A DNA stretch of 56,739 nucleotides. Source: Dehalococcoidia bacterium (GTDB taxonomy: Bacteria > Chloroflexota > Dehalococcoidia > GIF9 > AB-539-J10). Positions 3,543 to 55,941 of this stretch are shown piece after piece. Where the stretch lies: the NCBI GenBank assembly GCA_049516035.1, contig JBEKTM010000004.1:1-56739 (forward strand), in the 5' to 3' direction. The number at the start of each line of letters is the position of its first letter. Within the stretch, counting starts at the first letter, position 1. The position numbers and the translations under genes are program-made. The notes under the pieces are model-generated. The model did not search any database. It saw nothing but the letters and a program-made list of their open reading frames with translations, and had not been told where the DNA came from.

Positions 3543-4430
3543 ATGACTCAAGCAACTCAACAAACTAAAGTGGGTGTCCTAGCTGGTATACCTGCCTATA
3601 ATGAAGCAAGATATGTCGGAAGCATAGTCCTCCAGGCAAGACAATATGTAGACGAGGTCATTGTCGTTGACGATGGCAGCACAGATAACACTGCCGAGGT
3701 TTCTGAGCTTGCCGGCGCCACTGTAATCCGACACAGCGAAAACAAAGGTTATGGAGCAGCCATTCAGAGCATACTGGCAGAAGCCAGAAAGAGAAACCCG
3801 GATGTCCTCGTCCTCCTCGATGCTGATGCCCAACACAATCCCAATGAGATTCCCATTCTCATCAAACCCGTTTTGGAGGGTTTTGACCTTGTCATCGGCT
3901 CCCGAGAAGCCCAGAAAGAGAAGACGCCCCGTTTCCGGCGCATCGGGAAAGAAGTCATTTTACGCTCAACACGTCTCGCTTCAAAAACCAATATTTCTGA
4001 TTCTGAATGCGGCTTCAGAGCCTTTTCCAAGAAGGCTATATCAGAACTAGAGCTAAAGGAAAGCGGGATGGCCATATCGGCAGAAACGGTAACCCGCGCC
4101 GCCGCTAAAAACCTCAAGATGACCGAGGTGCCCATATCAAACATATACACCATGGATGGCTCGACCCTCAACCCGATAAGACATGGCGTAGACGTTCTCA
4201 GCCGGATAATAGTCATGATTTCACAGAGGAGACCACTGTTCTTCTTCGGACTGGCAGGTGGCATTTTGCTAGCGGTTGGTCTCATCATCGGCTTCAGGGT
4301 GCTTCATATAGCTACCGCAACAGGCGAGGTAGCTATGGGCAGCACTATACTGACCACTTTGTTCATTATCGCTGGTATGTTGAGCATCTTCACTGGCATA
4401 ATTCTGAACGCCTTAGGCAGTCGAAAATAA
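3543..4430 (+). CDS. GT2 glycosyltransferase, polyprenol/dolichol-phosphate hexosyltransferase-like (DPM1/AglJ/GtrB-like) with C-terminal TM helices
   Basis: IPAYNE...VVDDGSTDNT...LDADAQH motifs of GT-A family 2, with a hydrophobic C-terminal tail (LFFFGLAGGILLAVGLIIGF, ILTTLFIIAGMLSIFTGIIL). ATG 3543 preferred over TTG 3534. Confidence 0.75.
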   Translation: MTQATQQTKVGVLAGIPAYNEARYVGSIVLQARQYVDEVIVVDDGSTDNTAEVSELAGATVIRHSENKGYGAAIQSILAEARKRNPDVLVLLDADAQHNPNEIPILIKPVLEGFDLVIGSREAQKEKTPRFRRIGKEVILRSTRLASKTNISDSECGFRAFSKKAISELELKESGMAISAETVTRAAAKNLKMTEVPISNIYTMDGSTLNPIRHGVDVLSRIIVMISQRRPLFFFGLAGGILLAVGLIIGFRVLHIATATGEVAMGSTILTTLFIIAGMLSIFTGIILNALGSRK

Positions 4431-4529: not shown

Positions 4530-4600
4530 GTCATCGCACCTCTTCCCTTTCAGTCATTGCGAGCCCTTCGCAAGAAGGGCGTGGCAATCTCCGGGATTGC
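4530..4600 (+). repeat. Copy of the dispersed palindromic repeat family (GTCATCGC..ACCTCTTC..GTCATTGCGAG-N-GCAATCTC-N-GGGATTGC)
   Basis: Read directly: gtcatcgcacctcttccctttcagtcattgcgagcccttcgcaagaagggcgtggcaatctccgggattgc. Same architecture as 30806-30888. GCAATC/GATTGC form an inverted repeat. Confidence 0.8.
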
Positions 4601-7386: not shown

Positions 7387-7527
7387 AAACTACATCTGGG
7401 CTGTGGGAAAAGATATATTCCCGGATTTATCGGCAAGGACTACGATGATTTCTCTCAGGCATACATTCCTCATATGGACAATGAAAAGGTGTTACTGATA
7501 AGCTTTAATGTAGAGGCGCGGAGAAGC
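7387..7527 (+). pseudogene. Internally deleted remnant of a class I SAM methyltransferase (paralogue of 13268-13801)
   Basis: Translates as KLHLGCGKRYIPGF-IG-KDYDDFSQAYIPHMDNEKVLLISFNVEARR. This matches the N terminus (KLHIGCGNRYIPGF) and C terminus (KDYDDYSQAYIPHMDKERGILISLNVEATK) of the 177-aa methyltransferase at 13268-13801, with the middle missing. Confidence 0.75.
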
Positions 7528-13267: not shown

Positions 13268-13801
13268 TTACTTCGTTGCCTCCACATTAAGGCTTATTAG
13301 AATACCACGCTCTTTGTCCATGTGAGGAATATAAGCCTGAGAATAATCATCGTAGTCTTTATGAATGGTCTGCCGCCAGTCGTATCTGTGAATATCTTTA
13401 AACCCCGCTTTTTGCAAAACTTCTGATAAATAGGGATAATCAAATACCACATAATGTGTATTTTCGGGATAGTCCTGCCTGCCGACTAACGGGCCCATAA
13501 TCAATTTTAAATCTTTCGTTTTCAGATAAACTTCAGCCAATTTTTCAAAATCGGGGACAGCAAGCCGAAGAATACCACCAACTTTTAACACGCGATGCCA
13601 CTCCTTCAAAACATGCTCTATTTGTTGCCTTCCGAAATGCTCAAGAACATGACAACTGTAAATCAGGTCCACCGAGTTGTCATCGAACATATCTAGCTTA
13701 TCCGCTGAAGTCACATAATCCACATGAGGCAGTTTCCTTACATCAATATGGACAAAACCAGGGATATACCTATTTCCACAGCCGATGTGGAGTTTTTTCA
13801 T
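13268..13801 (-). CDS. Class I SAM-dependent methyltransferase
   Basis: KLHIGCGNRYIPGF (motif I-like), DLIYSCHVLEHF, LKVGGILRLAVPDF. Confidence 0.8.
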   Translation of the reverse strand: MKKLHIGCGNRYIPGFVHIDVRKLPHVDYVTSADKLDMFDDNSVDLIYSCHVLEHFGRQQIEHVLKEWHRVLKVGGILRLAVPDFEKLAEVYLKTKDLKLIMGPLVGRQDYPENTHYVVFDYPYLSEVLQKAGFKDIHRYDWRQTIHKDYDDYSQAYIPHMDKERGILISLNVEATK

Positions 13802-30805: not shown

Positions 30806-30888
30806 GTCATCGCGAACGGACGCACCTCTTCTGTCATTGCGAGGCACGACAGTGCAAGAGCAATCTCACAGAGCAGTGTGGGATTGCC
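30806..30888 (+). repeat. Copy of the dispersed palindromic repeat family, upstream of the wbpA-like operon
   Basis: gtcatcgcgaacggacgcacctcttctgtcattgcgaggcacgacagtgcaagagcaatctcacagagcagtgtgggattgc. Same architecture as 4530-4600. Confidence 0.8.
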
Positions 30889-34929: not shown

Positions 34930-37409
34930 TCAGGACTGATTTGAGCCAAGATATTTAAAAACTTTCACAGTTGTTGCGTTCACAGTGGCCCCGGGCGGAT
35001 ATGGATATACGAGCTCATAACTGTTCAATTTCTCAAGAGGCACGATGCTACTAAAAGGATCATACCCCACTATTCCATAATTTCCCGACGTCTGGCTTGC
35101 AACATAAGCTTGAGCATCCTCATAGTTGGAAAAAAATACAGGTTGTCCAACAATATTCTTATACGTATAGAACTGCCCTTGCTGTTGGTACACTGATTCC
35201 CCACTCCATGGGATAACTACTGTGGAATTTATCGAAGGAGTCACTGCTTCGCCATTGAAGTTATAAAGCCTAACTGCAGTTGACATATATAAAGCCTAAC
35301 TGCAGTTGACATATAATAAGCGGGATAATAAAGCAAGTAGAGCGCTTGCGGGGCTCCACCGGCTACCTGTGGCGGTATCCCATAATATTCGTAAAAATCA
35401 TCCTCGCTCTCGTTAGCCCAATCCACCATAGCGTGAAACTTTCCAATTACCATGTCATAATCAATCATCACATATTTCGTACCTAAGTTGTACTGCTCCA
35501 CAACTTCCTGGGTGGAGCTTTCATTCTGGGCGGTAAAGAACTTGCCAGCCTGGACAGCTCCAGACTGACCGGGATTGGCATTGGGTATGCGATGGGCAAT
35601 TTGCATTATAAAGTAGCCGTAGTCCCACCAGGACATCACACCGTAGGCAGATTCAGGGTATTGGAACGGAGTCTTGTATAGCTTATAATAGAAATTGGGG
35701 TCATTAAGATCACCAAAAGGGTCGGGGCTGTTATCCCTTAACCACTGAAGAGAGCTATACCATCCCTCATTCATAGTAACAAGTGCTTGCGCGGCGTAAT
35801 ACCGTGTGTAGCCGATGTAAAGCCCACCGATTGATGTGGGCTCATCTCTCCACAGTCCAATACTGGGGAAAAAGACCAGGAAAAAGATGATTATTCCGAC
35901 AACGATGACATTTACCCAGGCACCTCTGGGCTGCATGAATGTTCTTGGTTTCGGTTTCGCCCTGGCTTTCTTTCCCTTCTTCTTGAATTTTCTAACTGCT
36001 ACCACTACTTCTTTAGACTTAGCCAGCAGTTTGCGTAAGCCAGCAATGTCCAGCATTTTCCAGGAGAAATACCCTGTGAGCAAGGCAGCGTTCACAGTAT
36101 AGTAATAACTGAAGCGGCGTTGCCCCAGGACCGCTATTAACATTATTATGCTCCATACCAGGAATAAGATTTTGTCGGCACTTTTTTCCTTAACAGCGAC
36201 ATAGATAAGCATAGCAATGGAAATAAATGAGATGAAGAAGGTGGTGTTAAAGTTAGCCCAGGCCATACTGAAGGTGAAAACGCCATTACCAAAAGGGAAA
36301 AGAAGAGGAGTCGCCTCCATGACAGTGAGCATAGCGCCGGACTGCTTGAAGATGCTAAATAGGCTGAGCATGGACTGAAACAAGAGGGGATTGATGGCAT
36401 GCAAAGCAGCAAGCCCGATTCCCGCCAGTCCCAGCAAGGTCAAGGGATAGTAAACAGGCTTCCAAGCCCTGCCTGCCATGAACCGTGAGATAATACTTAA
36501 GACTACGGGTAACACTATGGCAACCGGCAGAGACACCAGAGAAATGGTATCCAGGCTGCCCTTGACCAATATGGGAAGAAGCATGAGGAAGGCAACAAGG
36601 AAGAGAGGTGTGCCCACAATACACAGATAGTCGCTCGGTTTATGACTCAAGTGGTCCACGATGAACTGAATCACCAGGTAAACAAATATAATGAATACGA
36701 ACAGCAGCCCACCTGCCCAGGTAAGTAGGTAAATACCCAGGAAGATGCCAGCGATCAGGGTATAGACGAGAGGCTTGGTGATAGTTGACCAGTCTTTACT
36801 GAGAATGTGGCTGAAGGAAATCTCCCTTGCTCGAGCTCGCTTAATGGCCATTATCAGAAAGAGTATGCACACGGTGCTAAACAAAACCTCGGCTACATGG
36901 TGGTCGGTAAAGCCAAGCAAGGAACGATTCAGGAATTCGCCAGGCAAGATGGCAACCAAGGCAGCTGAAATTACGCCTACCCAGCGGTTAAACAGCTCCT
37001 TGCCAATAAAGTACACGGGGATGAGCGTCAGAGTGCCCAGGATAGGGGGTATATAAGCGGCCACTACTTCTATGGTATGCAGAGTTGGTGCCCCCCCCTT
37101 AACAAGCAGAATAATAGCAGAGATAAGCCAGGCGAAGAACGGGCGAGAAAGTGCTGCACTACCGCCGGGGAAGAGCATGTATGGGTCAAAAGTATTGTAG
37201 TGAGGAAAGTGTTTGAGCAGAACTTCTATGTTGCGTATGTAATAATAGGCATCAGTCTCTCGAAACCAAACCGCGCCATTGACAAAAATCTGGTCATGAG
37301 GCAAGGCTATCCGTATGTACAATGAGATGCCACAGATAGCGGCCAGAATTATGCCCCATATAGCTATTGAGGGGAGCCTTCGTTTTCGCTCTGGACTTTG
37401 CTCGCTCAC
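34930..37409 (-). pseudogene. STT3/AglB/PglB-family oligosaccharyltransferase, reading frame split by a 26-bp tandem duplication (ORFs 35241-37409 and 34930-35286)
   Basis: About 13 TM helices, then a soluble domain with the diagnostic WWDYG (YGVMSWWDYGYF). N-terminal loop acidic motif RETDAYYY and TDHH (DxH). Both ORFs contain MSTAVRLY at the duplication. Removing one 26-bp copy gives a continuous protein of about 817 aa. Confidence 0.8.
35262..35313. repeat. Perfect 26-bp tandem duplication (2 copies of tataaagcctaactgcagttgacata)
   Basis: Read directly: 35262-35287 equals 35288-35313. The length is not a multiple of 3, so it frameshifts the oligosaccharyltransferase gene. Confidence 0.95.
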
Positions 37410-38969: not shown

Positions 38970-40583
38970 TCAGCCCTTGGCTTTGCCAGCCTGTTTTGCC
39001 AGCCAGTATTCAATGCTGTCGGCCAGTGCCAGCCAGCTAGCTTCGATGATATTGGTGGAGCTGCCTACTGTCCGCCAGTTCTCCCGGCCGTCACTGGATT
39101 CAATGAGCACCCGGACCTGCGATGCAGTGCCTGCAGTTTCCTCCAGGATGCGCACCTTATAATCAATAAGTTTTACAACAGTCAAGTCCGGATAGAACTG
39201 GAGCAAAGCCTTGCGCAGAGCTTGGTCGAGGGCGTCGACTGGGCCATCGCCCTCAGCAGCTGTATGCACTACCCTATTATCTACCTTGACCTTGATAGTG
39301 GCCTCTGACAATGGCTCCTCTTGGTTTCCTCTGGTGGGCGGACGACGCCGCTTCTCCACCACGACCATGAAGTCAACTAGCTCGAAAGGTGGTCGATAGT
39401 CAGGCTGGGCTCGGCGGAGCAAAAGATCGAAGGACGCCTCGGCAGCATCATATTGAAAACCTTGCTTCTCTAATAGCTTAATTTGCTCCAGCACCTTCTC
39501 AACTTCTTTGCCTTTAGGGACAGGTAGTCCACGCTCCTTAGCTTTAAAGACAATACTGCCCTTCCCAGCCAGCTCGGAAACCACAACATATGGGCGGTTG
39601 CCTACCAGATTCGGCTTTATATGCTGGTAGCTATCTTCCCATTTTATTAAACCTGATACGTGAATCCCACCCTTATGAGTGAAGGCATCATCGCCTACAT
39701 AAGGAAGCCGGTCATAATGAGGCATATTGGCCAGTTCTGATACATAGCGAGAGACATCGCTGAGCTTGTTCAGTTGCTTGTCAGTAACGCAATCAATACC
39801 CATCTTGAGTTTCAAAGTTGGTATGATAGAACAGAGATTGGCATTGCCACAGCGCTCGCCATAGCCATTAATGGTCCCTTGAACCTGAACAACACCCGCT
39901 TCCACGGCAGCCAGGGTATTAGCTACGGCAAGCTCGGCATCATTATGGGTATGAATGCCCAAAGGAACAGCTGTCATTGCGAGCGAAGCGAAGCAATCTC
40001 GAACACCTTTAATAGCCTCCGCTATCTGTTGTGGCAGGCTGCCGCCATTGGTATCGCAAAGAATCACGCATTCGGCACCAGTCTTAGCCGCAGCCACCAC
40101 CACTTGCAAGACATATTCAGGATTATCTTTATATCCATCGAAGAAATGCTCGGCATCGAAGAAAACCTTGAGCCCTTTTCCCTTGAGGTAACTTATGGAA
40201 TCTGTAATCATGCTGAGGTTTTCTTCCAGCGTTGTTTCCAGAACTCGGGTTACCTGCTTATCCCAGGCTTTTCCTACAACAGTAACTACCTTGGTTTTGG
40301 CTTGAAGCATGGCCCGGAGATTAAGGTCTTTTTCTGCTCGGCAATCTGAGTGCCTAGTGCTGCCAAAAGCCACTAGAGTAGAATGTTTCAAGCGCAAATT
40401 CCGTGCCTGGGCAAAGAACTCGGTATCCTTAGGGTTAGAGCCTGGCCAGCCACCTTCGATGAAGTCAATGCCCAACTCGTCTAGCTTCTGACAAATCTTG
40501 AGTTTGTCTTCAACAGAAAAGGAAATGCCCTCTTGCTGGGCACCATCCCTTAAGGTCGTATCATAAAGCTGCACCGCTATCAT
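38970..40583 (-). CDS. cimA: (R)-citramalate synthase
   Basis: YDTTLRDGAQQEGISFSVEDKL, GIHTHNDAELAVANTLAAVEAG, and the long LeuA-dimer regulatory C-terminal domain. 537 aa. It contains an in-frame repeat copy (see 39973-40000). Confidence 0.85.
   Translation of the reverse strand: MIAVQLYDTTLRDGAQQEGISFSVEDKLKICQKLDELGIDFIEGGWPGSNPKDTEFFAQARNLRLKHSTLVAFGSTRHSDCRAEKDLNLRAMLQAKTKVVTVVGKAWDKQVTRVLETTLEENLSMITDSISYLKGKGLKVFFDAEHFFDGYKDNPEYVLQVVVAAAKTGAECVILCDTNGGSLPQQIAEAIKGVRDCFASLAMTAVPLGIHTHNDAELAVANTLAAVEAGVVQVQGTINGYGERCGNANLCSIIPTLKLKMGIDCVTDKQLNKLSDVSRYVSELANMPHYDRLPYVGDDAFTHKGGIHVSGLIKWEDSYQHIKPNLVGNRPYVVVSELAGKGSIVFKAKERGLPVPKGKEVEKVLEQIKLLEKQGFQYDAAEASFDLLLRRAQPDYRPPFELVDFMVVVEKRRRPPTRGNQEEPLSEATIKVKVDNRVVHTAAEGDGPVDALDQALRKALLQFYPDLTVVKLIDYKVRILEETAGTASQVRVLIESSDGRENWRTVGSSTNIIEASWLALADSIEYWLAKQAGKAKG
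39973..40000 (+). repeat. 28-nt copy of the dispersed palindromic repeat embedded in frame in cimA
   Basis: gtcattgcgagcgaagcgaagcaatctc, identical to 50652-50679. On the cimA strand it encodes RDCFASLAMT between AIKGV and AVPLGIHTHND. Confidence 0.9.
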
Positions 40584-47509: not shown

Positions 47510-47537
47510 GAAATTGCTTCGCTCCGCTCGTAATGAC
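47510..47537 (-). repeat. Degenerate reverse-orientation copy of the dispersed palindromic repeat
   Basis: gaaattgcttcgctccgctcgtaatgac matches the reverse complement of the 28-mer at 25 of 28 positions by hand count. It lies between the mgtC-like stop and the nuclease gene start. Confidence 0.7.
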
Positions 47538-48019: not shown

Positions 48020-49537
48020 CTACTTACCCTTTTTTGCCGACAGCAAACGATTCAGGGCATTCATGTACGCCTTAGTACTGGCCACAATGATATCAGTGGC
48101 AGCACCACGCCCGGTATAGGTTACACCTTCGCTCTCTATTCGTATCAAAACTTCCCCCATGGCATCAATCCCCTCGGTAACCGATTTAACGGTGAACTCC
48201 GTGAGCCTATTAGGTATCCCAACTATGCGGTTGATAGCTTTATATACAGCATCTACAGGACCTGTGCCCAGAGCAGCATCAGCCAAACTCTGACCCCCAG
48301 GACCGATGAGCCTAACTGTCGCCGTCGGGATATTATGGTCACCGCAGGAAACTTCAACATGGTCAAGATGATACACTTCGGTAACAGTGCGCAGTTCCTC
48401 GGCTATCAGCGACTCAATATCCCTATCTGTGATATCCTTTTTCTTATCCGCTAACCCCTTGAAGCCTTGAAAGGCGCGGTTTAAATCCTCTTCACTTAAA
48501 GCATAGCCAAGCTCAGATAGTCTTTCCTTGAAGGCGTGTCTGCCACTCACCTTACTCAGTACCAATGTACTTGATGGGATGCCCACCGATTTAGGGTCCA
48601 TAATTTCGTAAGTGATAGCCTTTTTGAGCACGCCATCTTGATGGATACCTGACTGATGGCGGAAGGCATTTGCCCCAATGATAGCTTTGTTAGGCTGGAC
48701 AGGAAAACCAGTCAGCTCGCTAACCAGACGACTTATCCGGTAAATTTGAGTCGTATCAATATCGGTGGTGAGGTTGAAGAAATCCTGGCGAGTTTTTAGA
48801 GCCATGACAATCTCTTCCAGAGAAGCATTGCCGGCTCTTTCACCGATGCCATTAATAGTACATTCAACCTGCCGCGCACCTGCCTTTATTGCCTCGAGAC
48901 TATTAGCCACAGCTAAACCCAAGTCATCATGACAATGCACGCTGACCACCGCCTTGTCGATGTTAGGCACATTGTCCAGTATGCCCCTGATTAAGCTGCC
49001 GAATTCCTGAGGAGTAGCATAGCCCACGGTATCGGGGATGTTAACCGTGGTTGCTCCGGCTCTGATCACTGCCTCCAGAATCTGGTAAATATAAGCAGGG
49101 TCGGCACGACTGGCATCCATCGGTGAGAATTCAACGTCGTCCAAATAACTCTTGGCTCGAGCCACCGTTTCCCTAGACATTTTCAGAACTTCATCTCGAC
49201 TTTTCTTAAGCTGGTGAGCAAGGTGAATGTCCGAGGCTGAAAGGAAAACGTGAATTCGGGGATGCTTGGCTTCTTTGACCGCCTCCCAGGCTCTGTCTAC
49301 GGCTTCAATATTGGCCAGAGATAGAGCGCAAATTGTGGGACGCTTAAGCTCCCGGGCAACAAGGCTGACAGCTTCAAAATCACCAACCGAGCTGGCAGGA
49401 AAACCCACTTCAATGACATCAACGCCCAGTTTATCCAACTGCCTGGCTATTTCCAGCTTCTCCTGGAGGTTCAAGCTCGTTCCCGCAGCTTGCTCACCAT
49501 CTCGTAAGGTAGTGTCGAAAATGATAACCTTTTCCAT
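48020..49537 (-). CDS. leuA: 2-isopropylmalate synthase
   Basis: [36 protein letters not shown], and the LeuA allosteric C-terminal domain. 505 aa. Confidence 0.92.
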
Positions 49538-49715: not shown

Positions 49716-50315
49716 ATGGTACTGATAATAGACAACTACGATTCCTTTGTTTACAACCTCGCCCAATACTTGGGGGAACTGGGCTGGCAACCAGTGGTTC
49801 ACCGCAATGACCAGATTACTTTAGCTCAAATCGATGAGCTAGCCCCCAGCCACATTATCATCTCGCCAGGGCCCTGCACACCTTTAGAAGCCGGCATCTC
49901 TAACGAGACAGTGCGCCATTTCGGTGGGAAAATCCCCATACTGGGGGTGTGTTTAGGGCACCAATGCATTGGCTACGTCTATGGGGGCAAAATTGGTCGG
50001 ACATTGCCAGTCCACGGCAAGACCTCCACCATTCATCACGATGGCAAAACTGTCTATCAGGGCTTACCCAATCCTTTTCCAGCAACGCGCTACCATTCCT
50101 TAATTATCGAAGCTGAGGGGTTTCCATCCTGCCTCGAAGTCACTGCCAAAACTCCCGAAGGGATAATAATGGGGGTGAGACACCGAGATTATGTAGTGGA
50201 GGGGGTTCAGTTTCACCCCGAGTCCATCCTCACCGAAGTAGGACACGATATTTTAACCAACTTCCTTCGTTTCACCCGTCCAGTTTGGAGCGAGAAAAGT
50301 ATTCAACTAACGTGA
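49716..50315 (+). CDS. Anthranilate / aminodeoxychorismate synthase component II (class I glutamine amidotransferase, TrpG/PabA)
   Basis: IDNYDSFVYNL, ILGVCLGHQ (catalytic Cys), FHPES (His/Glu). 199 aa. Confidence 0.88.
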   Translation: MVLIIDNYDSFVYNLAQYLGELGWQPVVHRNDQITLAQIDELAPSHIIISPGPCTPLEAGISNETVRHFGGKIPILGVCLGHQCIGYVYGGKIGRTLPVHGKTSTIHHDGKTVYQGLPNPFPATRYHSLIIEAEGFPSCLEVTAKTPEGIIMGVRHRDYVVEGVQFHPESILTEVGHDILTNFLRFTRPVWSEKSIQLT

Positions 50316-50359
50316 AGCGAAGTCACTGTAAGCCTAGTCTATTGCTACCGCCGCCGACT

Positions 50360-50440
50360 GTCATTGCGAACGAAGTGAAGCAATCTCGGTGGCAGGGTAT
50401 TCGTGGGGATTGCTTCGGCACTTACGTGTCTCGCAATGAC
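50360..50440. repeat. Composite palindrome: two inverted copies of the dispersed repeat
   Basis: Left arm gtcattgcgaacgaagtgaagcaatctc (50360-50387). Right arm gggattgcttcggcacttacgtgtctcgcaatgac (50406-50440) in reverse orientation. Confidence 0.85.
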
Positions 50441-50453
50441 GAGCAGAGTTGAA

Positions 50454-51332
50454 ATGATGGCTGAAATTATTTATCTCAACGGTCAACTTATCCCTCGCTC
50501 TGAGGCCAAGCTGTCTCCGTTCGACCACGGCTTCCTTTACGGATACGGCTTATTCGAGACCATGCGAGCCTACAACGGCCATATCTTTCGCCTCGACTCT
50601 CATCTCACCCGCCTTCGCCATTCTGCCGAGATACTCGGTCTGATGTATAATGTCATTGCGAGCGAAGCGAAGCAATCTCTAGAGAGTGCCTGTACAGCAA
50701 CTTTAGAAGCTAATAAGCTCAAGGACGCTCGCCTGAGGCTCACCGTTTCGACAGGTGAAGGCGATATGACGCCCGACCCCAGCACCTGCACCAGTCCTAC
50801 TATCCTGATCACTGCTCAAAACCTTGTTCCCTTACCACCCGAAAAATATGAATCAGGCTTCAAAGCAGCCATATCTTTCCTGCGTCGCAATAGCCAGTCA
50901 CCTTTATCTCGATTGAAATCCACTTGCTATATGGAAAATATCCTCGCCCGCATGGCAGCCAAAGCTGGGGGATGCGATGAAGCTATCCTCCTCAATGAAC
51001 AAGGCTACCTGGCCGAAGGCAGCACGACTAATGTCTTCATTGTGAGCCATGGAGAGCTCATCACACCTTGTTTTGAAAGCGGTGTCCTGCCCGGCATCAC
51101 CAGGGACGCAGTCCTGGAAATAGCCCGGACTTCAAATATCAAGGCCACAGAAAGATGGGTGGAGTTAAACGAACTAATCGAGGCTGAAGAAGCCTTCCTC
51201 ACCAATTCCATACTGGAGCTTATGCCTTTGGTCTCCATCGAGGGCAGGACTATCGGTTCGGGCAAACCCGGCAAGCTAACCAAAGATTTGCTGTTTGCTT
51301 ATAGAAAACTCGTAGACGAAGCAGTACAATAG
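50454..51332 (+). CDS. Class IV (fold-type IV) PLP enzyme: aminodeoxychorismate lyase (PabC) or branched-chain amino acid aminotransferase
   Basis: FDHGFLYGYGLFETMRAY, LEGSTTNVF-like (AEGSTTNVFIV), LPGITRD. Start set at ATG 50454 because the ORF-track extension from 50403 is translation of the repeat. It contains an in-frame repeat copy at 50652-50679. Confidence 0.8.
   Translation: MMAEIIYLNGQLIPRSEAKLSPFDHGFLYGYGLFETMRAYNGHIFRLDSHLTRLRHSAEILGLMYNVIASEAKQSLESACTATLEANKLKDARLRLTVSTGEGDMTPDPSTCTSPTILITAQNLVPLPPEKYESGFKAAISFLRRNSQSPLSRLKSTCYMENILARMAAKAGGCDEAILLNEQGYLAEGSTTNVFIVSHGELITPCFESGVLPGITRDAVLEIARTSNIKATERWVELNELIEAEEAFLTNSILELMPLVSIEGRTIGSGKPGKLTKDLLFAYRKLVDEAVQ
50652..50679 (+). repeat. 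28-nt copy of the dispersed palindromic repeat embedded in frame in the class IV aminotransferase gene
   Basis: gtcattgcgagcgaagcgaagcaatctc, identical to 39973-40000. It encodes VIASEAKQS within ...ILGLMYN-VIASEAKQS-LESACTA... Confidence 0.9.
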
Positions 51333-52828: not shown

Positions 52829-52882
52829 CTCTGGTAATCAACGAGAGGCTGAAGTCCATCCGGAACTACGGATACTCCCAAG

Positions 52883-52933
52883 ACATAATGCCTGATTTGT
52901 GGCAGGCCTGATTGGTGTGGTATCCTTAAAATT
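52883..52933 (+). repeat. Cassette-associated 51-nt repeat, copy A
   Basis: acataatgcctgatttgtggcaggcctgattggtgtggtatccttaaaatt. Gapless alignment to copies B and C at 40 of 51 and 42 of 51 positions by hand count. Confidence 0.85.
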
Positions 52934-53490: not shown

Positions 53491-53508
53491 TTGCTTCCTA
53501 ATCTGGGG

Positions 53509-53559
53509 ACATAATACCTTATTTGTGGCAGGTTTGATTGAGGTGGTGTCGCTGGAATT
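53509..53559 (+). repeat. Cassette-associated 51-nt repeat, copy B
   Basis: acataataccttatttgtggcaggtttgattgaggtggtgtcgctggaatt, 19 nt after the toxin stop. Confidence 0.85.
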
Positions 53560-53567
53560 GGGGAGCT

Positions 53568-54194
53568 TCACGCGGTTGGGGCTTTTCTCAACATGGCAAA
53601 GATCGTCAGTTCCGTTCCCGGCATCTTGTCCTCTGAAACAACCTCGAATCCGAACCGCCGGTAGATAGCCACATTCTTCCGGACGTTCGTCTCCAGATAG
53701 CACGGCATTCGCTCGCGGTCGATACGTTCCAGCACCGGTCTCAGCAACCGGCTGCAAAATCCTTGTCCCTGGTATGCCGGGGCTACTCCGATAATCTGCA
53801 GATACCAGTGAGGGTACGGGACCAGCCTGCAGTGCAGGTCATCTACGAATCTACCATAAGCCCGCATTCGGCCTGCCCCCTGGCGTCCGAACCTGAAAAG
53901 AGTTGAGAGCGGGACCGAGCGCATAATTTGCGAGGCTCCAAACGGCGACTTCCCCGGCGGCAGCCAGGCTGCTACGCCCTCCAGCTTCTCTGAAGATGCA
54001 TAGACTTCGCCGTATTTCAGACAGACAGAAAGTTCGATGAAACCTAACCTATCGGCTGCTGCATGCCGCTCCCTTTCATCAGGGAAATAGTACCGGAACA
54101 GCTCGTATTCTGTGAAGGCCCTCCCCAGCACCGCAGCCCCGGCATCCCGTTCTTTCAGAGTTAGCCTTAGCAACTCGCCGGTCTGATTATCCAT
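53568..54194 (-). CDS. GNAT-family N-acetyltransferase
   Basis: IIGVAPAYQGQGFCSRLLRPVLERID (acetyl-CoA motif A, Q/RxxGxG) and YRRFGFEV near the C terminus. Confidence 0.8.
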   Translation of the reverse strand: MDNQTGELLRLTLKERDAGAAVLGRAFTEYELFRYYFPDERERHAAADRLGFIELSVCLKYGEVYASSEKLEGVAAWLPPGKSPFGASQIMRSVPLSTLFRFGRQGAGRMRAYGRFVDDLHCRLVPYPHWYLQIIGVAPAYQGQGFCSRLLRPVLERIDRERMPCYLETNVRKNVAIYRRFGFEVVSEDKMPGTELTIFAMLRKAPTA

Positions 54195-54336
54195 GCTTCA
54201 TTTCCAGCAATTGGAAACTATACCTCAATTTATAGCTGCGCCGGGCGCGGCTGTCATCAATTATAGCAAAGGATGTCGCTGCCACAGGAATAGCCAGGAA
54301 AGTGCGTTCAATTCCAGTATGGCGCTATTCTGGGGG

Positions 54337-54387
54337 AGATAATGCCTGACCTGTAGCAGGCCTGATTGGTATGATGTCCCTGAAATT
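54337..54387 (+). repeat. Cassette-associated 51-nt repeat, copy C
   Basis: agataatgcctgacctgtagcaggcctgattggtatgatgtccctgaaatt. Its flanking arms GGGGGAGATAATGCC / GGTATGATGTCCCTG form an imperfect inverted repeat. Confidence 0.85.
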
Positions 54388-54468: not shown

Positions 54469-55941
54469 TCACTCTAGGTAGCCCTTGAGTTTTCGACTGC
54501 GGGAGGGATGACGTAACTTGCGCAGGGCCTTGCCTTCAATCTGTCGTATTCTTTCTCGAGTTACATTGAATTCTTTACCCACCTCTTCCAGAGTTCGAGC
54601 ATGTCCGTCCTTAAGACCAAATCTAAGCTGGAGCACCTTTTTTTCTCGTTCGGTAAGTTCATCGAGCACTTTGTCTATTTGTTCTTTGAGTAGCTGCTGT
54701 GAAGTGGCTTCAGCTGGTGCTAAACTGGCGTGATCTGCAACAAAGTCGCCTAACAGGCTATCACCATCTTCGCCAATGGGCATGTCTAGCGACATCGGCT
54801 GACGGAAAAACAAAGCCATGCCCCCTTCCACCCTTTCTGGGGATATATTCAGGCGGCTGCCAATTTCTTCGTAACTTGGTTCGCGTCCGAGTTCTTGAAC
54901 TAACTGCCGCGTTGTGCGTAATACCTTGTTAATTATTTCCACCATGTGTACCGGAATGCGAATGACACGGGATTGGTCAGCTATAGATCGAGTGATACCT
55001 TGCCTGATCCACCAGGTGGCATAGGTACTGAACTTGTAGCCTCTTCTATACTGAAACTTCTCTATAGCTCGCATGAGGCCGATATTCCCTTCCTGGATAA
55101 GATCAAGGAAGGGCATGCCACGCGCGATATGCCTCTTAGCTATGCTAACCACCAGGCGCAGGTTTGCTTCAGTGAGGTGCCTTTCTGATGTTTCTGCTTC
55201 GGTCCTCACCTTTTCAAAGTAAGCCTTGAACTCACTGCTATGAGAATCGAGTTGAGACAGGAACCCGTTGTTACTCAGGAGAGCCTTTAGTTTTCGCCAT
55301 GAAGTTTTATCTCTAGCCAGGAGCTCTAGCAATTGCGGGGGCAAAAGTTGACTGTTTATGGAAAGATTTACTATGGCTTCCTCGTCCGCAGTGGTCCCAT
55401 TATCTATCCCCTCAGCGATTGCAGCTATTAGCGATGGATCTATAACAACGTCAATGGCCGAGCGAAATTCAGGATTTCTGATCGTCTCTACCACATTGCT
55501 GGAGGGTTCGATACCAATACGCTCCTCAATAATCCGAGCAACGGGATATGCCTTGGATAATTGGAAAATCACGTGAATAGCTATGTCAACAGGTGAAGGG
55601 AATTTCTTATATTTCCTGAAGTGGTTATACTCGATCCTTTCCACGTATCTACCCAGCTCCATCTCCCTGCATAGTACCTTCTCTTCGTGAGCTGTAAGCA
55701 GTGCCACCCTGCCGACTTCCTGCAGATACATACGAATTGAGTCGTCAATTACCTCGTAGTCCCCTGGTGTTACCGGAGGCTTGATCTCTTCAGCTTCCTC
55801 GGGAAGGGATTCTTCGCCCTCTTCTTTCTCGTCAACTTCCTCAACTATGGCGCTGACATCTTCAACTCCGGCTTCATCGCTGAGTAAGCCTTCAGCCAAT
55901 ATCTCATCACTATCCAGGTTGATGTTTTTTCCTCTAGCCAT
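54469..55941 (-). CDS. rpoD: Primary RNA polymerase sigma factor (sigma-70 family, group 1)
   Basis: Acidic region 1, region 2 ([47 protein letters not shown]), region 3, and region 4.2 ([30 protein letters not shown]). Confidence 0.93.

Follow-up and report, generated by a model that had tools for sequence, protein, structure and literature searches.

A short palindromic repeat, probably of the CGTC/TGTC type, inserted in frame in the citramalate synthase gene of an uncultured Dehalococcoidia lineage

Introduction

How does a gene of core amino-acid biosynthesis come to carry, in frame, a short piece of DNA that also stands in an unrelated gene and in several spacers? The question is raised by a 56,739-nucleotide (nt) stretch of the genome of a Dehalococcoidia bacterium (assembly GCA_049516035.1, contig JBEKTM010000004.1; below, the window), in which the citramalate synthase gene cimA contains such a segment. 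A first-pass annotation had proposed that the segment is repeat-derived and that in-frame colonisation of this kind is known for Rickettsia palindromic elements (RPEs) and rare elsewhere. Based on a comparison of alleles, predicted structures and copies of the repeat in other phyla, we consider it probable (roughly 0.8) that one repetitive extragenic palindromic (REP) unit of the CGTC/TGTC type was inserted in frame into a tolerant helix-loop of the enzyme.

Results

A repeat unit shared by two genes and five intergenic sites

The exact 28-mer GTCATTGCGAGCGAAGCGAAGCAATCTC was found at 39973-40000 and at 50652-50679, both on the forward strand, the first inside the minus-strand open reading frame (ORF) of cimA and the second inside a class IV aminotransferase gene. 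With up to three mismatches allowed, four matches to the 28-mer were detected in the window, against 0.00 expected from shuffles. The gapped family pattern CATTGCGA-N(4-30)-GCAATC gave six copies against 0.01 expected, and added variants with a long middle. Two of the REP copies in the window thus lie inside genes and five are intergenic (Table 1), in agreement with the occurrence in an unrelated gene and in intergenic DNA reported at first. The TGTC tag is present on four of the seven, including both in-gene copies, and the window copies have a CTC tail.

The short unit can be paired through 5 Watson-Crick pairs followed by GA/GAA mismatches and a GC stem of 2 bp with a GAA loop, such that the term palindromic, used of it from the start, applies weakly to the single unit, with its G.A-rich mismatches. 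A stable hairpin in the single unit received no support from nearest-neighbour folding, the short unit being no more stable than its shuffled counterparts (DNA z = 0.28, RNA z = -0.11). Nearest-neighbour parameters give no credit to sheared G.A pairs or to the GCGAAGC mini-hairpin. The inverted doublet at 50359-50441 folds as an 83-nt hairpin (-22 kcal/mol as DNA, z = -6.7). No Rfam family was found for the window at the gathering threshold, for 15 cross-phylum loci, or in a permissive scan of 50300-50720.

Filled and empty alleles of cimA

The predicted enzyme matches TIGR00977 over its full length (723 bits against a cutoff of 450, residues 4-532 covered), and both the match and the structural model bear out the earlier statement of a preserved frame and an otherwise intact CimA. 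A leuA gene stands separately at 48020-49537. The reverse complement of the REP unit supplies the codons CGA GAT TGC TTC GCT TCG CTC GCA ATG ACA (R195-T204), read as R-D-C-F-A-S-L-A-M-T directly before AVPLGIHTHND, precisely as had been noted. The metal-binding residues H211 and H213, both invariant, follow 7-9 residues past the insert. In the predicted protein, the tryptic peptide that covers the insert starts DCFASLAMTAVPLGIHTHNDAELAVANTLAAVEAGVVQVQGTINGYGER.

Presence or absence of the segment was examined in close relatives. Among the 120 nearest CimA homologues (87-98% identity, from metagenome-assembled genomes of Dehalococcoidia), 108 are empty, reading AVQKA------SPVPLGIH in proteins of 529-531 aa, while the query and 11 of the 120, making 12 sequences, have the filled form, AVRDCFASLAMTAVPLGIH. 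When a divergent filled allele served as the seed of a second search, the combined set grew to 192 sequences, 37 of them filled and 155 without the insert. The filled cimA allele is polymorphic among related Dehalococcoidia. The nearest empty allele (L001, protein P0002), at 97.4% nt identity, reads GTT AAG AAA GCA AGC CCT GTT, where filled alleles read GTT CGA GAT TGC TTC GCT TCG CTC GCA ATG ACA (CCT/GCT/...) GTT. Accordingly, 27-30 nt stand for 9-12 nt, with a net gain of 18 nt or six residues, and the codons replaced are those for K-A-S, with or without a preceding K/Q/R codon. In antisense, the 27 nt correspond exactly to TGTC-ATTGCGAGCGAAGCGAAGCAAT-C. The two kinds of allele differ by a replacement, not by the simple 28-nt insertion first envisaged. 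The REP unit is open in five of six reading frames, which together with its 27-nt length means that such events would often leave a gene intact.

We also compared 148 distant representatives of the wider CimA family (39-59% identity). None of the 148 has the segment: a REP-like peptide at this loop was found in 0/148, and the same residues without the nucleotide repeat, which would have spoken for ancestral coding sequence, were likewise seen in none. In 95 of the 148, as in the empty alleles, DTNGG is separated from the first metal-binding His by 23-24 residues, and in the query by 29. Across the wider family the loop at the insert site ranges from 22 to 72 residues, indicating that insertions are tolerated there. 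As judged from these sequence comparisons, the cimA segment is repeat-derived and not ancestral coding sequence, as had been claimed. In one distant representative, P0406, 70 residues separate DTNGG from the first metal-binding His; they abound in G, P and A and end ...THTLTLSLAGRGEPP, and another type of repeat may be the source of this long alpha6-beta7 loop.

Predicted structure of the insert

AlphaFold2 models of filled and empty CimA were built on the same 61-sequence alignment. The filled model has a helix at 184-200, a loop at 201-207 and a strand at 208-213 that holds H211 and H213, with a predicted local distance difference test (pLDDT) score of 92-95 across residues 191-210; in the empty model the corresponding elements are at 184-197, 198-201 and 202-205. 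The C-terminal regulatory domain was poorly modelled for both alleles, and structural statements here concern the barrel. The DRE-TIM barrel and HxH metal motif are present, and the barrel superposes on the catalytic domain of Leptospira citramalate synthase, 3ble (template modelling score 0.81, root-mean-square deviation 2.5 A), as well as on LeuA N-terminal domains, including 3ewb. In the alignment to solved homologues a gap falls at the insert site. In the models, the insert adds one turn to helix alpha6 and three loop residues ahead of the HxH strand. Helix-to-strand loops of TIM barrels lie on the face opposite the catalytic ends of the strands. By this topology, the extra turn and the three loop residues are expected far from the metal site, on the barrel's non-catalytic side.

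Persistence of the exact sequence in cimA

The 30-nt element is identical in seven filled alleles (the window, L002, L127, L128, L129, L132 and L133), among which the rest of cimA differs by 3-29% at the nt level and 41-77% of synonymous codons match. Within the element the synonymous codons of these canonical alleles are fully conserved, and for divergent pairs it is the sole 10-codon window of cimA with 30/30 identity. In five other filled alleles, the element carries 2-7 changes. One allele (P0265/L138) has a long-middle variant of the family at the same site with the same junctions.

For parsimony changes across 11 full-length alleles, the element falls in the lowest 3% of windows. This set is partly biased by the scan through which alleles were collected: five DNA alleles of filled cimA came from a metagenome pattern scan that returned six loci and fixed 9 of the 30 nt. 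The subset of six alleles found by protein similarity alone is therefore given separately, and in these the element is at the 13th percentile of windows, which is not significant.

Similarity in flanks of 10-40 codons does not exceed the cimA average. This excludes ordinary long-tract allelic recombination, and we rejected it as the source of the identical elements. Homogenisation of all copies throughout the genome was rejected as well: the copy directly 3' of mgtC, which is orthologous in five lineages, decays in all five, indicating that copies are not generally homogenised. This ancient copy, degraded by substitutions, a 2-nt deletion and rearrangement, is a useful neutral comparator for the in-gene copies. 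In two genomes with decayed in-gene copies, no other copy of the family was found in 33 kb (two genomes only).

Filled alleles are scattered on the CimA protein tree, and several are nearer to an empty than to another filled allele: the distances are 0.050 and 0.090 for P0003, 0.054 and 0.078 for L130, and 0.011 and 0.023 for the query. At 80-90% identity the resolution of this tree is low, and the scatter is read from it as it stands.

The aminotransferase copy and neighbouring loci

The REP copy in the aminotransferase gene is read in another frame and orientation than that in cimA. At this site most relatives have a decayed look-alike, ATC CTG ACC ACA GAC GAA GGC AAG CAA TCG, and a rare short-loop allele (L136) has ~15 unrelated nt where the repeat has 27 nt. 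The prevalence of the look-alike indicates that the element here is old; a repeat origin of this copy holds, a recent private insertion does not. An ORF with a GTG start at 50403 crosses the REP copy at 50408-50440 and acquires the N-terminal extension GIASALTCLAMTSRVEMM, which is also found on the database proteins P0121 and P0138. The GTG starts that give this extension are probably mis-called, the conserved start being MAEIIYL at 50457.

The REP doublet of the pabA-pabC spacer is missing from the same spacer in three syntenic relatives (L125, L135 and L136), a distribution that would suggest recent mobility of the family. In L135 the spacer holds a different palindromic repeat, CCCTCTCCCTTGAAGGGAGAGGG (3945-4024), where the window has the doublet, so that one spacer is occupied by different small repeats across lineages.

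The repeat family across phyla

One genome per species was scanned with the pattern GTCATTGCGAG-N(4-30)-GAAGCAATC, which matched at least 120 loci. The matches listed, to which all counts in this section refer, include 170 copies of the REP family from more than 12 phyla. Hosts include Alpha- and Gammaproteobacteria (with many Bradyrhizobium and Sphingomonadales), Bacteroidota, Cyanobacteria, Chloroflexota, Patescibacteria, Planctomycetota, Zixibacteria, Desulfobacterota, Firmicutes, Campylobacterota, Ignavibacteriota, Armatimonadota, Gemmatimonadota, Omnitrophota, Latescibacterota and others. The arms ATTGC...GCAAT, invariant in the pattern, are paired in every fold. The commonest middle is that of the window, CGAAGC (at least 25 copies), and the exact 26-nt core occurs in at least 23 loci, mostly those of Bradyrhizobium and other Alphaproteobacteria. 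Longer middles are hairpins with covarying stems (CCC/GGG, ACC/GGT, GCC/GGC, CCGGC/GCCGG and others). Of the tags, 105 are CGTC and 57 TGTC; of the tails, 80 are CCA, 42 CTC and 14 CCC. Adjacent copies are arranged '+ then -' in 31 cases, '- then +' in 4 and in tandem in 2, with a modal spacer of ~26 nt. Pairs typically consist of one short and one long unit, and the window doublet at 50359-50441 has the same layout as the Bradyrhizobium dimers.

To look for a linked mobilising gene, we clustered 2828 ORFs from 8-kb windows around 120 loci and ran Pfam on the recurrent clusters. No recurrent linked gene was detected at these loci, the clusters being ABC, SDR and RND families; genes between paired doublets were ordinary (Pfam also gave glycosyltransferases, amidase and peroxidase), and no Y1 transposase was linked.

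The family also stands in frame in genes of other phyla: in UvrA (L118 2895-2921, a full doublet read VIASKAKQS...GIATSPLAPRND), in the GATase domain of the GMP synthase GuaA (L094 4512-4543) and in an AddB-like PD-(D/E)XK nuclease (L076 2335-2369).

Other repeats in the window

Three further repeats were noted. The 26-mer TATAAAGCCTAACTGCAGTTGACATA is perfectly duplicated in tandem at 35262-35313, in the 3' end of a 722-aa minus-strand ORF (35241-37409) that is STT3/AglB-like by synteny with L002; as 26 is not a multiple of three, the duplication alters the C-terminal reading frame or the stop codon. A 52-nt element is present in three copies (52882-52933, 53508-53559 and 54336-54387; 79-83% identity to the reference copy), two of them just 3' of two successive genes on the minus strand, one a GNAT-like ORF (53568-54194) and the other for sigma-70 (54469-55941). 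This is a second repeat family, unrelated to REP and possibly terminator-associated. Finally, inverted 83-nt arms at 7435-7517 and 13278-13360, 78% complementary and 5.8 kb apart, may be paralogous gene segments in opposite orientation.

Table 1. Genes and REP copies, with positions in the window unless another locus is named
Feature	Position	Strand	Remarks
cimA, citramalate synthase, 537 aa, filled allele	38970-40583	-	TIGR00977 match
REP unit in cimA	39972-40001	+	TGTC tag, ATTGC-GA-GCGAAGC-GAA-GCAAT body, CTC(G) tail
Class IV aminotransferase gene	50457-51332	+	start ATG 50457 (MAEIIYL), probable true start
Identical REP unit in class IV aminotransferase (IlvE/PabC-like)	50651-50679	+	read as VIASEAKQS
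Short REP unit of pabA-pabC spacer doublet	50359-50387	+	28-mer match 50360-50387, 2 mismatches
Long REP unit of pabA-pabC spacer doublet	50408-50441	-	pattern match 50408-50438
Decaying REP copy directly 3' of mgtC	47510-47537	-	3 mismatches to 28-mer
Same mgtC-3' copy in other lineages	L002 2968-2993; L125 5337-5446; L135 1163-1246; L136 7020-7103
Intergenic long-middle REP unit	30832-30867	+	internal hairpin GCAC-GACA-GTGC; pattern match 30835-30865
Intergenic long-middle REP unit	4552-4591	+	internal hairpin CCCTTC-GCAA-GAAGGG; pattern match 4555-4589

Discussion

We propose that a single REP unit was copied, in antisense, into the stretch of cimA that encodes the helix alpha6 end and the alpha6-beta7 loop. 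The repeat would be built as a tag, an imperfect hairpin that opens with A-T pairs and a 3-nt tail, and mobilisation would act on the single-stranded hairpin through an enzyme unlinked to the copies. The family also reached the aminotransferase gene nearby and spacers between genes. The enzyme presumably stays functional, such that the insert would be tolerated selfish DNA with no adaptation, and the exact sequence could persist in some lineages by renewal or re-templating through the family's own dynamics.

Four observations weigh against insertion of a REP unit as the account of this locus. When filled and empty alleles were compared, no target-site duplication was found at the cimA insert; replacement with no such duplication hides the chemistry of insertion and means that later deletion or templated repair must be assumed. 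The single unit, with 5 Watson-Crick pairs, G.A-rich mismatches and a GCGAAGC mini-hairpin, falls short of the 8-9 bp stem of published CGTC REPs. Amino-acid diversity of the insert (0.184) equals the protein average (0.184) and is below that of the flanks. Lastly, a purely neutral passenger leaves unexplained both the 30/30 identity in seven alleles that are 11-29% different elsewhere and the lack of any other perfectly conserved 30-nt window in those comparisons. Candidate explanations for the letter-perfect copies are renewal by the family's own machinery, a hot-spot target, and selection at the nucleotide level, none of them decisively favoured.

That the in-gene copy was repeatedly renewed, either because a preferred target was hit several times or because a copy with intact ends was re-templated from family members, is a possibility we entertain tentatively; it concerns the element's history and is compatible with insertion of a REP unit. 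The filled alleles would then not be unchanged descendants of a single insertion. Renewal is suggested by the scatter of filled alleles on the tree, several of them closer to empty than to filled ones, and by the bimodal outcome of 0/30 changes in seven alleles against 2-7 in five. The long-middle variant of P0265/L138 cannot be derived from the short form by point mutation, flanks at gene-average similarity exclude long-tract allelic recombination, and the aminotransferase site exists in three states, canonical, decayed look-alike and a different short loop. However, all filled alleles have the same junctions and the same replaced codons, which independent insertions would hardly produce without exact targeting. 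The low resolution of the protein tree, the simple decay of the orthologous mgtC-3' copy, and the origin of five alleles from a pattern fixing 9/30 nt, with the six protein-found alleles at the 13th percentile only, also count against renewal.

A more specific form, in which in-gene copies, for as long as their ends can be recognised, are kept canonical at a fixed site by site-specific re-insertion or re-templating through an unlinked enzyme or host factor that recognises the 26-nt core in more than 12 phyla, appears doubtful. Active maintenance by such a factor would account for the bimodal pattern, the swap for a long variant and the identity of the core across phyla.

It is unlikely that the element is kept for a function of its nucleotides, as a binding site or a structured DNA or mRNA signal that might, for instance, serve a host factor, stabilise the mRNA or make translation pause ahead of the metal-binding strand. 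Synonymous codons that are fully conserved in the element of canonical alleles and match at 41-77% gene-wide, the sole 30/30 window in divergent pairs, the rank in the lowest 3% of windows (11 alleles, partly scan-biased) and an exact 26-nt core common across phyla, pointing to a conserved recognition partner, would all fit such a function. Yet ~80% of close relatives live without the element, the two genes carry it in opposite orientation and in different frames, and the single unit folds like shuffled sequence both as DNA and as RNA. The element has decayed in five alleles and in intergenic copies, has no match to an Rfam family, and shows no significant conservation in the unbiased set of alleles.

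We regard it as very improbable that the residues stem from ancestral coding sequence, or that their likeness to the repeat is due to chance. Most aminotransferase relatives do have a segment of the same length (ILTTEEGKQS), so the segment is old in that gene, but two loci have the 28-mer exactly and five more have related copies, against 0.00 expected, the same core stands in unrelated genes and spacers of many phyla, and its absence from most close and all distant CimA relatives already contradicts an ancestral origin. An assembly artefact made by the repeat scarcely merits consideration: assembly graphs may be confused by repeats, and the lineage of the window is an uncultured one, but the filled allele occurs in more than 30 independent clusters or assemblies (JGI, ENA and NCBI) with lineage-specific flanks, an intact frame and identical junctions throughout.

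If a REP unit was inserted as proposed, a core amino-acid biosynthesis enzyme of an uncultured Dehalococcoidia lineage would seem to tolerate a repeat-encoded peptide seven residues ahead of a metal-binding strand, and natural filled and empty alleles, side by side, form a ready-made test of loop tolerance in DRE-TIM metallolyases. The host range of CGTC-type REPs is widened to Chloroflexota and many other phyla, with the 26-nt core almost unchanged. Orthologous in-gene copies that are polymorphic also give a handle on the mobilisation and maintenance of CGTC REPs, for which the surrounding codons can serve as a clock. In addition, REP copies give rise to false N-terminal extensions and unusual peptides among the proteins of databases.

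Comparison with known repeat systems

CGTC-tagged REPs were described as a superfamily with a CGTC, often TGTC, tag, stems that open with A-T pairs and a CCA tail (Di Nocera, De Gregorio and Rocco 2013, BMC Genomics 14:522; PMC3733652). In that study, the four families have stems of 8-9 bp and loops of 4-5 nt, the loops being short overall and variable in Bradyrhizobium CGTC-1; the repeats are mostly head-to-head dimers, no transposase is associated with them, and bulged units may have escaped the search (PMC3733652). The window repeat has every defining feature of CGTC REPs except a clean 8-9 bp stem: the tag, the A-T stem start (GTC-ATT...AAT), a 3-nt tail of the CCA type, inverted dimers and no transposase. 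Its copies are also mostly intergenic, with a minority in frame within genes, uvrA included. The tail in the window is CTC, unlike the consensus CCA. Chloroflexota are not among the five phyla listed for CGTC repeats (PMC3733652). The exact consensus ATTGCGAG...GAAGCAAT is absent from the text and text supplements of that paper, in which the family consensus sequences stand in a figure; the window family is likely to be identical with Bradyrhizobium CGTC-1. A literature search by the repeat sequence string returned primer noise only, and one on intragenic REPs in Chloroflexi or Dehalococcoidia returned nothing specific.

The RPEs are alike in being short repeats that lie in frame in housekeeping genes, add a peptide at a tolerant position and vary in presence among relatives. 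The likeness drawn in the first-pass annotation stands at this level and is closer than was seen there, since RPE-4 and RPE-6 have been placed in the CGTC superfamily, together with Neisseria dRS3, which belongs to CGTC-1 (PMC3733652), and lie in frame; homology of sequence to RPEs does not extend further. The RPE-4/-6 peptides VIPAKAGI, IPAFAGMT and DSRFRGND arise by the frame logic that also gives VIASEAKQS, DCFASLAMT and LLRFARND here, since the GTCATT...AATGAC ends are common to all. The Rickettsia stem, however, is ATTCC...GGAAT, as the RPE-6/CGTC-1 peptides VIPAKAGI and SFPRKRES imply, in contrast to ATTGCGAG.../...GAAGCAAT, with only the tag, AT start and tail in common. The classic RPE-1 is 100-150 bp, and the RPE host is obligately intracellular, whereas the host here is a free-living Dehalococcoidia lineage. 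RPEs reportedly deteriorate after insertion, a view attributed to Amiri et al. 2002, whereas several cimA copies remain canonical. [quoted passage not shown]

The systems of REP doublets forming hairpins (REPINs) and REP-associated tyrosine transposases (RAYTs) also have hairpin units in inverted doublets that fold into a longer structure, as at 50359-50441, together with uniformity across the family and long persistence. They differ in a GTAG/GTGG tag and a cognate RAYT gene, compared with a CGTC/TGTC tag and no RAYT at ~120 loci, and REPINs are usually lineage-specific, while the core in the window is shared across phyla. [quoted passage not shown] Collectively, these comparisons place the cimA segment within a kind of event already known, in which the host and the gene are new and the sub-variant possibly so, rather than as a new phenomenon.

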